Both the position numbers and the translations under genes were made by a program. Below the pieces are notes generated by a model. The model was not told the origin of the DNA. It worked only from the letters and a program-made list of their open reading frames with translations, and searched no databases. A stretch of 64,000 nt of DNA, from NCBI GenBank assembly GCA_964515925.1, contig CAZEYP010000003.1, forward strand, positions 21,628 to 85,627, given 5' to 3'. The DNA comes from an uncultured Nitrospirota bacterium. GTDB taxonomy: Bacteria > Nitrospirota > Thermodesulfovibrionia > Thermodesulfovibrionales > JdFR-85. Of this stretch, positions 10,044 through 46,372 are shown piece by piece. Position 1 is the stretch's first letter. Each line of letters opens with the position of its first letter.

Positions 10044-11084
10044 ATGACAAAAGTAGCAATCTGTGGAGGTAGTGGATATACAGGGGCAGAGCTAATACGA
10101 CTACTTAGCAGTCATCCCCATGTAGAGCTTGTGGCAATCACCTCTGAAAGGTCAGAGGGCGAAAGGGTTGATCAGTTATTCCCACATCTTAAAGGGATAT
10201 GTGACCTTAAGTTCGTTTCCCTAAAGAAAAATAAACTCGAAGAGCAGGCAGAACTGCTTTTTCTTGCCCTCCCTCATGGTGCATCACAGGATAGGGTAGA
10301 GTATTTTGTGAAGGCAGGAAAAAGGGTAATCGACCTTTCTGCTGATTACAGATTAAGGGATCCGGAGGTTTACCGCTTCTGGTATGGTCTTGAACATAAT
10401 TATCCGAAAACCCTGAAAAAGGCTGTTTATGGACTTCCAGAGCTTTACAGAACAAAGATAAAAAGGGCACAGCTTGTGGCTAACCCAGGTTGTTATCCTA
10501 CATCTGCATTGTTGGGGCTTTATCCAGCACTAAAGGCAGGCATTATCAACACAGAGGGCATTGTAATAGATTCCAAATCTGGCACATCAGGTGCAGGCAG
10601 AAAGGCAGATGTTGCCTATAACTTCTGTGAGATAAACGAGTCCTTCAGGGCCTATGGCATTGCCACACATCGGCACACACCTGAGATAGAGCAGGAACTT
10701 TCGAAAATTGCTAAAACAGAGATTACCGTGGACTTTACACCTCATTTGCTACCAATAAACAGGGGGATTTTGACAACCATTTATGCCCCTTTAAACAATA
10801 AAGACATCACTGAAGATGAAATTTTAAGAATTTACAGAAAGCACTACAGAGGGGAGCCCTTTGTAAGAATTTTTGAGGAAACATTGCCTGATGTAAGGAA
10901 TGTTCGCGGCACAAACTATTGTGACATTGGAGTTAGAATAAATAAAAGAACCTCAACTCTGATAGTGGTTTCTGCAATTGATAATCTGCTTAAAGGTGCC
11001 TCTGGACAGGCTGTGCAGAATATGAATCTTATGCTTGGCCTTGATGAGACTACTGGATTAACCCAGATTGCGGCCCTTCCCTGA
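10044..11084 (+). CDS. argC: N-acetyl-gamma-glutamyl-phosphate reductase
   Basis: GGSGYTGAELIRLL nucleotide-binding motif, PGCYPTS catalytic Cys and C-terminal DNLLKGASGQAVQN. Confidence 0.93.
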   Translation: MTKVAICGGSGYTGAELIRLLSSHPHVELVAITSERSEGERVDQLFPHLKGICDLKFVSLKKNKLEEQAELLFLALPHGASQDRVEYFVKAGKRVIDLSADYRLRDPEVYRFWYGLEHNYPKTLKKAVYGLPELYRTKIKRAQLVANPGCYPTSALLGLYPALKAGIINTEGIVIDSKSGTSGAGRKADVAYNFCEINESFRAYGIATHRHTPEIEQELSKIAKTEITVDFTPHLLPINRGILTTIYAPLNNKDITEDEILRIYRKHYRGEPFVRIFEETLPDVRNVRGTNYCDIGVRINKRTSTLIVVSAIDNLLKGASGQAVQNMNLMLGLDETTGLTQIAALP

Positions 11085-11493: not shown

Positions 11494-12410
11494 AAAAAGT
11501 AGGTTTCATCTACGATGACATCTTTCTTAAGCATATCCCACCGGGGTGGCATCCAGAGAATCCTGACAGGTTAAGGGGAATAATAAATACCCTTGAGTCT
11601 TCCACTTTTTCAAAGGAGGTTGTTTATATAAAGCCTGTAAAGGCAACTGTTGATGAACTAACCGCTATCCACACAAAGCAGTATGTGGAAAAGGTGGCTG
11701 CAACAACTACAGGGTATCTTGACCCCGATACCTATGTGTCTGAAAAAAGTTACGAGGCAGCTCTCTACGCTGCTGGTGCTGTAGCAGAGGCTGTAAGGAG
11801 AGTAAAGGCAGGTGATATAGAAAGGGCCTTTTGTGCAGTGAGGCCACCGGGGCATCATGCAGAAAAAGACAGGGGCATGGGATTCTGTCTGTTCAACAAT
11901 ATCGCCATTGGGGCAAGGGTTGCCCAGAGCCTTGGTTATAAGAGGGTTTTAATTATTGATTTTGATGTCCATCATGGAAATGGCACAGAGCATGCCTTTG
12001 TGGATGACCCCACTGTGTTTTACTTCAGCACCCATCAATATCCTCATTACCCCGGCACAGGAGGGCGCAACGACAGGGGACGAGGTGCAGGTGAGGGCTT
12101 TACCATGAATATCCCTCTGCCCCCGGGAACAGGTGATGAGGAGATAAGGGGAATCTATAATGATGTGCTCGGGGAGGTTGCTGAAAAGTTCAGCCCTGAC
12201 ATTGTACTTGTTTCTGCAGGCTATGACATCTATATTGATGACCCGCTTGCTGACATAAGGGTTACCTATGAGGGCATAATGGAGATAGCAAGGGGGATAA
12301 ACAGGGCAGCCAGTGGTGTGCCTGTTATTTACTCTCTTGAGGGTGGTTATAACATAAATGCCCTTTCAAAGTCTGTTTTAATCACTATTGAAGAGCTTCT
12401 TTACGATTGA
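11490..12410 (+). CDS. histone deacetylase / acetoin-utilisation (AcuC/Aph) family deacetylase
   Basis: RPPGHHA, DFDVHHGNGT and EGGY motifs. ATGA overlap with the JAMM gene. Confidence 0.85.
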   Translation: MKKVGFIYDDIFLKHIPPGWHPENPDRLRGIINTLESSTFSKEVVYIKPVKATVDELTAIHTKQYVEKVAATTTGYLDPDTYVSEKSYEAALYAAGAVAEAVRRVKAGDIERAFCAVRPPGHHAEKDRGMGFCLFNNIAIGARVAQSLGYKRVLIIDFDVHHGNGTEHAFVDDPTVFYFSTHQYPHYPGTGGRNDRGRGAGEGFTMNIPLPPGTGDEEIRGIYNDVLGEVAEKFSPDIVLVSAGYDIYIDDPLADIRVTYEGIMEIARGINRAASGVPVIYSLEGGYNINALSKSVLITIEELLYD

Positions 12411-25441: not shown

Positions 25442-25861
25442 ATGGATAAGGACTTTGAGATTCTTGATATCTCTGGCGATGTGGGTATAAGAGTATTTGG
25501 TGAGAATCTTGAAAAGCTTTTTATAAATGCTGCCAGAGGGTTATACCATTTAATAACTGAAAACAGTAATATAAACTCCTCAAAGACTGTTGATGTCAAC
25601 GTTTATGCAGAAAACCTTGATGGTTTGCTTGTTGGCTGGCTGAATGAACTGATTTTCCAGTTTGATACATACGGGTTCCTGGGCAGGGAGATTGAGATAA
25701 AAAATCTTTCAGAAAACAGGATTGAGGCAACCATTTTTGGTGAGGACTTTGACCCTCAAAGACACGAAAAGGGCCTTCTTCTTAAGGCAGCGACCTACCA
25801 TAACCTTAAAATAGAAAAACAAAACGGTCTCTGGAGTGTAGAGGTTATTTTTGATATATAA
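25442..25861 (+). CDS. archease (RtcB activator/chaperone)
   Basis: 139 aa with N-terminal FEILDISGDVGIRVFG and C-terminal KAATYHNLKI. Located directly upstream of rtcB. Confidence 0.85.
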   Translation: MDKDFEILDISGDVGIRVFGENLEKLFINAARGLYHLITENSNINSSKTVDVNVYAENLDGLLVGWLNELIFQFDTYGFLGREIEIKNLSENRIEATIFGEDFDPQRHEKGLLLKAATYHNLKIEKQNGLWSVEVIFDI

Positions 25862-26047
25862 ATTGCGTTTATTGCGTTGATAGCGTTAATTGCGTTTATC
25901 GAGTTCATTGCGTTCTTTGCGTTAATAGCGTTAGTTGAGTGTAGGGATTCTGGTTTTACTACACCCTACACGCTACTCCCTACACCCTGTTTTTTTACAC
26001 CCTGAAGTGTTTAGAATTTAGAATTTAGAAATTAGGATTTGAAAATT
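25861..26047 (+). repeat. composite element: nonamer array (NNTTGCGTT x8-9) + TACACCC-type heptamers + TAGAATT-type heptamers
   Basis: 9-nt periodicity over 25861-25941; tacaccc tacacgc tactccc tacaccc over 25960-25987; tttagaa x3, attagga, tttgaaa over 26010-26044. Confidence 0.9.
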
Positions 26048-26061
26048 ATGGGGGGTGCATT

Positions 26062-27510
26062 ATGTCAGGGCAGGTTACCATAGAAAGGATTGATGAAACA
26101 AGACTCAAGGTGCCCATGGGTTATGTTCAGGGAATGAGGGTTGAAGGTATTGTGTATGTTGACAGAGTGCTCCAGCAGTATTTAGAGCCAGATGCCATCA
26201 AACAGGTTGCCAATGTTGCCACACTGCCAGGCATAGTTGGCCACTCTTTTGCAATGCCTGATGTTCACACAGGTTATGGTTTTTCTATTGGAGGGGTAGC
26301 TGCCTTTGATGTCAACGATGGGATAATTTCACCAGGTGGTGTTGGCTACGACATTAACTGAGGGGTAAGGCTCCTGAGGAGCAACCTCACACGTTCTGAG
26401 GTGCTCCCCAGGATAAGGGACCTCGTGGAGGTCCTGTTTAAAGAGATACCCTCTGGGGTTGGTTCAAAAGGAAGGCTGAAGCTCTCAAGAAAAGACCATG
26501 AGAGGCTCCTTCAAAAGGGTGCCCGCTGGGCAGTAGAGCAGGGTTATGGAACAGCAGATGACTTACAGTATATTGAATCTGGCGGTGCCATAGAAGGTGC
26601 TGAGCCTTCATTGATTAGCGAAAAGGCCTACGAACGGGGAAGAGCCCAACAGGGAACCCTTGGCTCTGGAAATCACTTTCTTGAGATACAGTATGTGGAA
26701 GAGGTTTACGACGAGAAGGCTGCCAGCATATTTGGTCTTTTCCCGGAGCAGATAACCCTGATGATTCACACTGGCTCAAGGGGATTTGGACATCAGGTAT
26801 GTACTGACTTTTTACAGATTATGGAAAGGGCTGTCAGGAAATACGGGATAAGTCTTCCTGATAGAGAACTTGCCTGCGCACCCTTTAACTGCCAGGAGGC
26901 ACAGGATTATTTTGCTGCAATGAAGGCAGCAGCGAATTACGCATGGGCAAACCGTCAGTGCATAATGCATTGGTGTAGAGTTGCCTTTATGAAGGTTTTG
27001 AGTGTTTCTGAGGGTGAACTTGGTATGCAGATTGTTTATGATGTTGCTCATAATATTGCAAAAGTGGAAGAGCATACTGTGGACGGTAAGAAAACTAAAC
27101 TTATAGTGCACCGTAAAGGTGCAACAAGGGCATTTTCTGCAGGACATCCCGAGATATCGGAAAAATACAGAGATATTGGTCAACCAGTGTTAATACCTGG
27201 AGATATGGGCAGGGCATCCTATGTTCTGGTAGGTACTGAAAAGGCAATGAAGGAGACCTTTGGCTCTACATGCCATGGTGCAGGAAGAGTGCTTTCAAGA
27301 CATCAGGCCATTAAAAGGGCAAAGGGTAGGGCTATCTGGAGAGAGATGGAGGATGCAGGTATACTGGTAAGAAGTGCTGGAAAGAAGACCCTTGCAGAGG
27401 AGATGTCGGAAGCTTACAAGGATATTTCAAATGTGGTAGATGTGGTAGAGAAGGCAGGCATATCAAAGAAGGTTGCAAGGTTGCGTCCTCTGGGGGTTGT
27501 AAAAGGTTAA
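26062..27510 (+). CDS. rtcB: RNA-splicing ligase RtcB with an in-frame TGA (codon 100) at the conserved active-site Cys: candidate selenoprotein
   Basis: Track ORFs 26062..26361 and 26401..27510 share one frame, with a single TGA at 26359-26361. The sequence GGVGYDIN[TGA]GVRLLRSNL matches the RtcB motif [10 protein letters not shown]. Downstream His motifs are intact ([23 protein letters not shown]). The RtcB call is confident; the Sec interpretation carries about 0.55. Confidence 0.8.
26378..26407 (+). promoter_or_regulatory. candidate SECIS-like hairpin downstream of the rtcB UGA
   Basis: GGAGC-A-ACCUCA [CACGUUC] UGAGGU-GCUCC forms 11 bp with one bulged A. The stem starts 17 nt after the UGA. 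The loop lacks the classical leading G, so the call is tentative. Confidence 0.4.
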
Positions 27511-43351: not shown

Positions 43352-44348
43352 CTTGCCTCCTCAGATTGTACTTTTCAAGTATCCTGTTTTCGATTTCCTC
43401 TGCCATCTCAGGATGTTCGCGGAGGTATTGTTTTGCATTTTCTCTGCCCTGACCAATACGGGTTCCACCATAACTATACCAGGCACCGGATTTTTCTATT
43501 ATATTTGAGGAAACCCCAAGGTCTATAAGTTCACCCTCTCTGGATATTCCCTGATTAAAATAGATATCAAATTCTGCCTGTCTGAAAGGTGGGGCTACCT
43601 TGTTTTTTACAATCTTTACCCTTACTCTGCCTCCAATCATCTCCTGACCACTCTTTATGTTATCAATCTTTCGGATGTCAAGACGCATTGAAGAGTAAAA
43701 CTTAAGTGCTGTTCCGCCAGTTGTGGTCTCTGGATTTCCAAACATAACCCCTATCTTCATCCTTATCTGGTTTATGAAGATAACCGTTGTCTGCGACCTT
43801 GATATGGCTGCGGTGAGCTTACGAAGGGCCTGACTCATCAGACGGGCATGGAGCCCTGGCAGACTGTCACCCATATCACCCTCAATTTCGGCCTTTGGAA
43901 CCAGTGCTGCCACTGAGTCTATCACCACTATGTCAACTGCCCCGCTTCTTACCAGTGACTCGGTTATCTCAAGTGCCTGCTCACCGGTGTCAGGCTGAGA
44001 CACAAGAAGGTCCTCTATGTTAACGCCGAGCCGGGAGGCATAGTTGATATCAAGGGCATGCTCAGCATCTATAAATGCTGCTATGCCACCTGCCTTCTGA
44101 GCCTGAGCTATGGCGCTCAGGGCAAGGGTGGTCTTTCCAGAGGATTCAGGCCCGTAGATCTCTATTACCCTGCCACGTGGGAATCCACCCACGCCTGTGG
44201 CAATATCCAGTGTGAGTGAGCCGGTGGAGATGGCCTGTATGCCTTCAAAGCCTCCCCTGTCACCAAGGCGCATGATAGTGCCCTTGCCAAAGTTGCGTTC
44301 AATCTGCGTGATAGCCATTTCAAGGGCCTTGAGTTTGTCTTTATTCAT
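43338..44348 (-). CDS. recA: recombinase RecA
   Basis: [21 protein letters not shown] and the canonical L1/L2 loops. Confidence 0.97.
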
Positions 44349-44911
44349 AAATCCTCCTTCCTTAAAGGGGCACTGTAGAGTATCTCATACTCTGCCCCTG
44401 CTGGTTTTAGTGTGCTTTTTACAAGCAGGAGTTTATCAACTGTTATTTTACCAAACTCTCTGTCCATATATCCTCTTAAATCTTTCAGTAACGGATTCAG
44501 GCCAACAGGTGATTTTACCCTTCCAATGGTTAGATGTGGATGAAAATCCCTGTCTTCAGGTTCGAAACCAAGGGGTTTTAATTCATTGTTTATATCGTTA
44601 TGTATTTTTTCAAGACCACTGTCTTTGTTTATTCCCACCCATAGAACCCTTGGACGGGCGAAATTGGGGAAAACGCCTGTGCCTCTTGCATGAAGTACAA
44701 AGAAACTGTGTCTTGAGGCCACAAGGGATATTGCCTTTTCAATATTTATTACTATATCACTGCTGACTTCGCCAAGAAATTTTATTGTGATATGGATGTT
44801 TTCGGGTTTTACCCACTTGATGTTTGTATCATGGGTGCGGAGTTTATCTATCAGAGAGGCTATATCTCTTTTTACCTCCTCTCCGATATCAATGGCTATG
44901 AAGAGTCTCAA
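44345..44911 (-). CDS. thpR: RNA 2',3'-cyclic phosphodiesterase (2H family, ThpR/LigT)
   Basis: Two HxT/S motifs, HITIKFLG and HLTIGR. Confidence 0.85.
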
Positions 44912-46090: not shown

Positions 46091-46372
46091 ATGACTCGGG
46101 CAGATCTTGTAAAGGCAATCTTCGACAAGGTAGGGCTTCCCAAAAAGGAAGCTCAGGACATCATTGAGCTCATCCTTGAGACCATAAAGAAGACCCTTGC
46201 CGAGGGTGAAAATGTAAAAATTACAGGTTTTGGCACCTTTCATGTGAGAAAGAAGACGGCCCGCCGTGGCAGAAATCCCCAGACCGGTGAGGAACTTGAA
46301 ATCACTCCGAGGAGGGTGGTTACATTTAAACCAAGCAATATTCTCAAGGAACGGGTAGAAAAGGTTAAATGA
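46091..46372 (+). CDS. ihfA: integration host factor alpha-like DNA-bending protein (HU/IHF family)
   Basis: GFGTFHVRKKTARRGRNPQTGEELEITPRRVVTFKPSNILKERVE closely follows the IHF-alpha pattern. Confidence 0.85.
   Translation: MTRADLVKAIFDKVGLPKKEAQDIIELILETIKKTLAEGENVKITGFGTFHVRKKTARRGRNPQTGEELEITPRRVVTFKPSNILKERVEKVK

Follow-up and report, generated by a model that had tools for sequence, protein, structure and literature searches.

An in-frame TGA at the metal-bridging cysteine codon of rtcB in a Nitrospirota contig and in further bacterial phyla: a candidate selenocysteine-containing RNA ligase

Selenocysteine (Sec) takes the place of cysteine as a direct ligand of the catalytic metal in formate dehydrogenase FdhA (Mo/W) and in [NiFeSe] hydrogenase (Ni), enzymes whose Cys and Sec forms alternate among relatives, in lineages rich in anaerobes. 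In the case of [NiFeSe] hydrogenase, the benefit proposed for Sec is protection from irreversible over-oxidation (PMC13188914). The RNA ligase RtcB differs from both in having a binuclear, Mn(II)-type site and in carrying out nucleotidyl transfer and RNA ligation, with no redox chemistry. In the Pyrococcus horikoshii enzyme, Cys98 binds both Mn ions, one of them together with His234 and His329 and the other with Asp95 and His203, and the introduction of Ala in place of the equivalent Cys renders a dead ligase in the E. coli, P. aerophilum and human proteins (PMC10630183). Here we analyse an rtcB gene located at positions 26062..27510 (+ strand) of a 64,000-nt stretch of DNA (the window) from an uncultured Nitrospirota bacterium (contig CAZEYP010000003.1, positions 21,628 to 85,627), in which the codon for this cysteine is an in-frame TGA. 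We consider it very probable that the product of this gene is a functional RtcB 3'-phosphate/5'-OH RNA ligase of full length, with the metal-bridging Cys replaced by Sec.

Two open reading frames (ORFs), 26062-26361 (99 codons, ending in TGA) and 26401-27510 (369 codons), lie in the same frame, 339 nt apart from start to start, with no stop codon in the intervening 39 nt, the TGA at codon 100 (26359..26361, +) being the sole interruption. Read through this TGA, the proposed Sec codon, the gene comprises 482 codons followed by a TAA stop, and PF01139 matches both pieces. A previous reading of this DNA, made from the sequence only, had regarded the two ORFs as one frame broken by one TGA, which is borne out by the open 39-nt gap and the 482-residue read-through product. 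It had also anticipated that annotation pipelines would split the gene, and gene callers do render two products of 99 and 369 amino acids, pieces of these lengths being found in NCBI, JGI and Logan data. Independent copies of the locus, which were reached via a neighbouring histidine-kinase protein, are present in a JGI 3300023503 contig and in the Logan SRR5189949 assembly, and both are identical to the window gene (0 mismatches over 1449 nt, including the TGA). The 99- and 369-residue fragments themselves have exact matches in the three data sources named above, to which close members of the cluster add ENA. As the sequence-only reading had stated, TGA is a normal stop elsewhere in the window, where it terminates ca. 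27 of 64 long ORFs, including argC (11082-11084), a deacetylase gene (12408-12410) and an IHF/HU-like gene (46370-46372).

Searched with phmmer against all PDB chains, residues 5-482 of the read-through protein match residues 3-481 of P. horikoshii RtcB with E=1.2e-189, and matches over nearly the whole length were also obtained with the T. thermophilus homologue (E=8e-169) and with human RTCB (E=5e-146), so that the product corresponds at full length to characterised RtcB proteins (PF01139). Codon 100 aligns on Cys98 of the P. horikoshii enzyme and on Cys122 of human RTCB, inside the SPGG(I/V) motif region, and the residue at this column is Cys in 120 of the 120 best full-length database matches. 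The earlier proposal that the TGA falls exactly on the invariant metal-ligand Cys thus holds. The remaining catalytic residues are conserved in the window protein, which keeps D97, H205, H236, H330 and H405 as well as the motifs GSGNHF, HTGSRG, DVAHN and STCHGAG; the guanylylated His would be His405, equivalent to His404 in P. horikoshii. The protein therefore resembles the Cys-type RtcBs (P. horikoshii PH1602, T. thermophilus TTHA1785, E. coli RtcB and human RTCB) in its full-length homology, in the motifs for Asp95, His203, His234, His329 and His404, and in having an archease partner, but differs from them in that the bridging residue, which is Cys98, Cys78 or Cys122 depending on the species, is here a UGA associated with a hairpin of the SECIS (Sec insertion sequence) type. 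As judged from these alignments, the UGA would have to be translated as Sec or Cys for the predicted set of metal-binding and guanylylation residues to be complete.

An intein-containing RtcB was also considered as a possible identity and rejected, given that the corresponding model (NF038162) scored 788 bits against a cutoff of 1150, only the extein parts matching, with no inserted sequence. The match of NF038162 to the window protein consists of two extein blocks, which join at residue 99. The intein of P. horikoshii RtcB is inserted directly before Cys98, so that one and the same Asn-Cys junction would harbour an intein in archaea and the putative Sec in bacteria.

A scan of a collection of species-representative genomes with the pattern GG.G[YF]DIN-TGA-G[VIM] detected TGA at the same rtcB codon in at least 120 genomes, each representing a species, from several phyla. 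According to the labels of the genome records, which provide approximate counts among the matches listed, ca. 54 belong to Desulfobacterota or "delta proteobacteria" (Syntrophaceae, Syntrophorhabdus, Desulfarculaceae, Desulfobacterales), ca. 28 to Nitrospirota (Thermodesulfovibrionia, Ca. Magnetobacterium casense, Ca. Magnetocorallium, Dissulfurispiraceae, Ca. Sulfobium) and ca. 24 to Acidobacteriota (Vicinamibacterales and others), with one or a few records each for Binatia, Eisenbacteria, Gemmatimonadales, Planctomycetota and Polyangiaceae. UGA-containing orthologues with both halves intact are therefore present in several organisms, as is required of a selenoprotein gene. Among the matches listed, nearly all loci that reach the gene end have 381-383 open codons after the TGA and then a true stop (378-379 in loci L070 and L106), and wherever sufficient DNA is available upstream, 95 or more open codons precede it. 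Frameshifts or a run of N were found in only 3 of ca. 85 complete loci (L039, L065 and L067), all of them in metagenome-assembled genomes (MAGs) in which the RtcB frame is recognisable again downstream, and these interruptions are probably assembly errors rather than decay. In an alignment with 195 Cys forms, Asp97, His205 and His236 were invariant in 82 of 82 complete TGA forms, and among the matches listed an archease homologue was found within the 8-kb locus of 101 of 120 TGA-rtcB loci. Degraded sequence around the TGA in relatives, which the sequence-only reading had named as the sign of a true pseudogene, was thus not what these loci presented. For Ca. Magnetobacterium casense, a homology search with its protein detected only a 361-residue C-terminal fragment of RtcB (100% identity) and no full-length form.

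Outside the Nitrospirota hairpin class described below (class A), all of 58 predicted Sec-RtcBs have a Cys at column 329, directly before the His330 ligand (DVCHN), a residue present in 13 of 75 diverse Cys-RtcBs and in none of 24 class-A proteins. Cys329 could be a selenenylsulfide partner of Sec or a mere lineage marker. A Sec-specific partner cysteine was sought in the alignment of class A, to which the window protein belongs, and none was found.

The TGA and Cys forms are interleaved among the relatives of the window gene. The best 120 full-length protein matches, with 74-77% identity and mostly from Thermodesulfovibrionales and other Nitrospirota, all have Cys, while the closest relative overall is a TGA form (L061, 80.5% identity). 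When 82 TGA forms and 195 Cys forms were placed in a neighbour-joining tree, which is a rough one, 15 pure-TGA clades and at least 12 changes between the Cys and TGA states were obtained, so that the alternation of TGA and TGY that had been suggested as a check turned out to be extensive. Such interleaving matches the pattern of established selenoprotein families.

The sequence-only reading had placed an 11-bp hairpin at 26378-26407. This hairpin is present and is extended by 5 further pairs into a 16-bp stem-loop within the coding sequence (26372..26413, +), which constitutes a candidate bacterial SECIS (bSECIS) on the basis of its fold and of covariation in class A. The lower stem pairs 26372-26376 with 26409-26413, and the upper stem of 11 bp pairs 26378-26389 (with A26384 bulged) with 26397-26407, there being one A/C mismatch in the whole stem; the apical loop, CACGUUC, has 7 nt (26390-26396), and 28 nt separate it from the UGA. 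The minimum free energy (MFE) of the 63 nt starting at the UGA (26359-26421) is -25.7 kcal/mol, and the 81-nt stretch 26350-26430 has a folding z of -2.76 in comparison with dinucleotide shuffles. As in the E. coli fdhF-type and consensus bSECIS elements, the stem-loop is located right after the UGA and within the ORF. The bSECIS criteria, taken from PMC13188914 (Fig. 2), are a loop of 3-9 nt, an upper stem of 4-16 bp, a G in the first two loop positions, a distance of 16-37 nt from the UGA and an MFE of -7.5 kcal/mol or lower, and the loci were scored against them by constrained fold. The window hairpin fits this model in loop length, stem, spacing and energy, but not in the loop G. A search of the window with Rfam at gathering threshold rendered one tRNA and no match to a SECIS family.

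The hairpin is stronger and more frequent after TGA than after Cys codons. As controls, we used Cys loci from a metagenome scan carried out with the same pattern but with TGY instead of TGA. Among the matches listed, all four bSECIS criteria were found in 103 of 119 TGA loci and in 40 of 116 Cys loci. The mean z of the downstream 66 nt was -1.59 after TGA versus -0.07 after TGY (Mann-Whitney p=4e-10), and the TGA loci were still 4 kcal/mol more stable than the TGY loci after regression on GC content. In closely related genes, the hairpin zone had MFE values of -17.0 to -29.7 kcal/mol (mean -23.2) in 28 class-A TGA genes versus -8.6 to -17.6 kcal/mol in six Cys genes, the peptide encoded by these being identical or almost identical.

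Covariation was analysed in an ungapped alignment of 29 class-A sequences. With the structure derived from the window, 83.4% of the cells are paired, a figure that falls to 43-54% if the 3' strand is displaced by 1-3 nt. Compensatory double changes occur at six stem pairs, such as one that is C-G in 18 sequences and G-C in 8, and the observed covariation score was reached by none of 500 shuffles. Scores are worse in mid-stem, where many class-A members use a register one base off that of the window, and RNAalifold run on the codon alignment recovered only part of the stem because the members use registers that differ by one base. The check for a co-varying hairpin in relatives, which the sequence-only reading had called for, was therefore positive: the stem co-varies in class A.

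At least three classes of hairpin sequence, which follow taxonomy, were distinguished among the 119 TGA loci of the matches listed. Class A, from Nitrospirota and including the window, has the form CCUNAGGAGCAACCUC, a loop of 7-9 nt and GAGGUNNNUCCNNAGG. Class B, from Desulfobacterota and many Acidobacteriota, is UGCGCUCA-GGUC/GGUU-UGAGCCGCA, and its loop lies 21 nt downstream of the UGA; this pattern is the consensus of 90 non-Nitrospirota TGA loci, 39 of which show the GGUC/GGUU loop form at 21 nt. Class C, from Binatia and other Acidobacteriota, is GAAGACC-AGUUU/GGUCU-GGUCUUC. In classes B and C the loop starts with G[G/U], as in the consensus bacterial SECIS, and resembles the apical loop of E. 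coli fdhF. The commonest non-Nitrospirota form, a GGUC/GGUU loop on a stem with a bulged base, is also like the consensus bSECIS. Between UGA and loop there are 21 nt in the class of Desulfobacterota/Acidobacteriota and 27-30 nt in that of Nitrospirota. The situation differs from that of the fdhF-type element in that at least three sequence classes of hairpin serve one rtcB codon in different phyla.

Two further features of the class-A region were observed. In several loci, L018, L026, L046 and L113 among them, the UGA itself can pair with a downstream CUCCUCA (UGAGGNGU...GCUCCUCA) within the first 19 nt counted from the UGA. The resulting 5' hairpin is an alternative to the lower SECIS stem, with which it competes, and is weakened in the window by a G at position 18. 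Cys-type rtcB genes from close relatives (L243-L248) carry eroded class-A hairpins, L244 still having an 11-bp stem of -17.6 kcal/mol. These eroded hairpins look, by their sequence, like fossil SECIS elements left after a recent reversion from Sec to Cys.

If the UGA is decoded as Sec, the stem-loop that begins 10 nt after it would act as a bacterial SECIS during translation, recruiting SelB-GTP-Sec-tRNA(Sec) to the ribosome paused at UGA-100, so that Sec would be inserted in place of termination and 382 further codons would be translated. In the resulting protein, a selenolate would replace the thiolate between the two metal sites that position GTP for guanylylation of His405, a step in which the adjacent archease would help. 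SelB and tRNA-Sec would then have to exist in the source genome, and selenium would actually have to be inserted. The Sec users recorded as SelA+/SelB+/SelD+ in PMC5029168 (Tables S1/S2) include Thermodesulfovibrio as well as several Acidobacteria and Deltaproteobacteria.

Several observations weigh against Sec insertion. Neither selA, selB, selD nor tRNA-Sec was found in the 64-kb window or in ca. 12 kb of extra flanking contig: ARAGORN detected no tRNA-Sec in the window or in 120 related 8-kb loci, Pfam/NCBIfam annotation of 60 window ORFs rendered no selA, selB, selD or other selenoprotein gene, and the flanking contig beyond both window ends contains housekeeping genes and a TlpA-like protein in its CxxC (Cys) form, the thioredoxin-fold gene just beyond the window end being of the CxxC form. 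For Mn(II), a soft selenolate is an unusual ligand in chemical terms. A weaker form of the same hairpin is kept in some Cys relatives, so that the conserved peptide LLRSNL...EV.PRI accounts for some of the capacity to pair. The window loop, CACGUUC, lacks a G in its first two positions, so that, in the bSECIS test proposed by the sequence-only reading, the hairpin agrees with the model in loop length, stem, spacing and energy but not in the loop G, and shows three of the four criteria; some genuine bSECIS elements do not conform to the model either (PMC13188914). Finally, in an engineered P. horikoshii RtcB (U98), in which the same residue was replaced by Sec, artificially, via UAG and EF-Tu without a SECIS, self-cleavage took place near the Sec (Haruna et al. 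2014, PMC4150793). This indicates that Sec at the RtcB site is not trivially tolerated and that natural Sec-RtcBs must cope with a reactive Asn-Sec junction, although the conservation of the natural TGA-rtcB genes implies that Sec is presumably tolerated in them.

It could be the case, as an alternative, that read-through of the UGA inserts cysteine or a different standard amino acid, either by a Cys-charged tRNA-Sec-like tRNA or by hairpin-stimulated near-cognate suppression. In bacteria, tRNA-Sec-like tRNAs that have Cys identity are on record, Cys is the ancestral residue at a position that requires a ligand of the thiol or selenol type, and the absence of visible Sec machinery from the DNA examined would be in accordance with such decoding. 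Nonetheless, a single-base change to TGY would give Cys, and many relatives have made it, whereas UGA and a SECIS-type hairpin have been maintained together in at least 120 species, which is what characterises decoding by way of SelB, and the lineages concerned are known Sec users. We therefore regard decoding as a standard amino acid as unlikely.

That a nonsense mutation has inactivated rtcB, leaving a pseudogene, is much less probable still. It would be in line with the two pieces given by gene callers and with the single base that is needed to convert TGC or TGT into TGA. However, the recurrence of TGA at this one codon across several phyla and at least 120 species, with 381-383 open codons downstream, invariant catalytic residues and retained archease linkage, cannot be explained by inactivation, and the few frameshifts and N-runs have the look of assembly faults; in the light of these comparisons, a pseudogene appears effectively refuted. 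Equally improbable is that RtcB is made as two polypeptides of 99 and ca. 369 residues that assemble non-covalently, the hairpin serving for translational coupling or re-initiation. The GTG at 26401, inside the hairpin, permits an ORF to be called there, but the 39 nt from the TGA to this GTG encode a conserved in-frame segment, the metal-bridging residue would be lost, Cys-to-Ala mutants being ligase-dead (PMC10630183), and the three hairpin classes have neither a start codon nor a ribosome-binding site conserved there. The weakest alternative, that the TGA stems from faulty sequencing or assembly or is a sense codon in a reassigned code (tables 4/25), would account for a bare in-frame stop and nothing more, and it can practically be dismissed, given that the identical JGI and Logan assemblies, besides cluster members from four data sources, exclude a read or assembly error and that TGA terminates numerous ORFs of the window, argC and the IHF-like gene included.

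The interpretation of the gene as a candidate Sec-containing RtcB, put forward in the sequence-only reading, is thus supported by the Cys column, the alternation, the co-varying hairpin, the intact relatives and the identical assemblies. In agreement with the view in that reading that RtcB is not known among catalogued selenoproteins, RtcB and PF01139 are absent from a compilation of May 2026 that comprises 119 known and predicted prokaryotic selenoprotein families (PMC13188914). RtcB is likewise missing from the supplementary data of deep-Sep and of the ISME survey published in 2016; NCBIfam contains no model for an RtcB of the selenoprotein type, and the RtcB reviews of 2023 and 2026 make no mention of a natural Sec form or of selenium. 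In the full-text literature on RtcB or archease together with selenocysteine, a scope that leaves aside GenBank transl_except annotations, only the engineered U98 protein was found. The probable Sec-RtcB represents a standard kind of recoding in a family in which it was previously uncatalogued.

Regarding the purpose of Sec, a 2026 review describes the metal-binding cysteine of RTCB as an "Achilles heel", oxidation of which destroys metal binding, and in animals this oxidation inactivates tRNA and XBP1 splicing, PYROXD1 and thioredoxin having evolved as protection (PMC13247085, PMC12263435, PMC10653391). Our preferred hypothesis, based on the analogy with [NiFeSe] hydrogenase and Sec-containing formate dehydrogenase, is that Sec would ease the re-reduction of an oxidation-prone metal site or would alter its metal affinity or preference. 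In broader terms, we lean, though only modestly, towards the view that these genes constitute an uncatalogued Sec-RtcB family of at least 120 species and at least five phyla, which would include the first selenoprotein acting on nucleic acids and the first case of selenium bridging a binuclear Mn-type centre in a non-redox enzyme, with at least 12 gains or losses and lineage-specific SECIS elements, and in which selenium would protect, or retune the metal preference of, an oxidation-sensitive site that is guarded in eukaryotes by PYROXD1 and thioredoxin. A natural Sec at the RtcB Cys in many anaerobic and soil bacteria would offer a ready experiment on metal affinity, on the chemistry of guanylylation and on resistance to oxidative inactivation. 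For selenium biology, an RNA-repair enzyme would join a catalogue dominated by thiol oxidoreductases and provide a further case of Sec as a metal ligand, while for genome annotation hundreds of rtcB genes are concerned that are now split in two or labelled as pseudogenes.

With respect to the neighbourhood, an archease gene (25442..25861, +; 139 residues, PF01951), the product of which is a known activator of RtcB guanylylation, is located directly upstream of rtcB. The 200-nt spacer between the two genes is highly repetitive (window 25853-26037). It contains ca. 10 tandem copies of a 9-nt unit, ATTGCGTTN, at 25853-25943, followed by repeats of the CTACACCCT type with an inverted repeat (GTGTAGGGA at 25939-25947 and TCCCTACAC at 25977-25985), and then four TTTAGAA units (26010-26037) right before the ribosome-binding site. 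These repeats may be a regulator-binding array. A G-rich run, GGGGGGT (26050..26056, +), 5-11 nt upstream of the rtcB ATG, is similar to a Shine-Dalgarno sequence and may, from its sequence and position, correspond to this ribosome-binding site.

A second gene for an RNA-end-processing enzyme is present in the window (44348-44911, - strand), encoding a 2',3'-cyclic phosphodiesterase of the LigT/ThpR type (2'-5' RNA ligase superfamily) within a cinA-thpR-recA-recX-alaS cluster. In addition, 3-6 kb past the 3' end of the window (L249, 16681-19405), there are genes for a CARF-Card1 endonuclease and for Csx3, accessory to type III CRISPR (clustered regularly interspaced short palindromic repeats), which are flanked by VapB/PIN and Phd/PIN toxin-antitoxin pairs.

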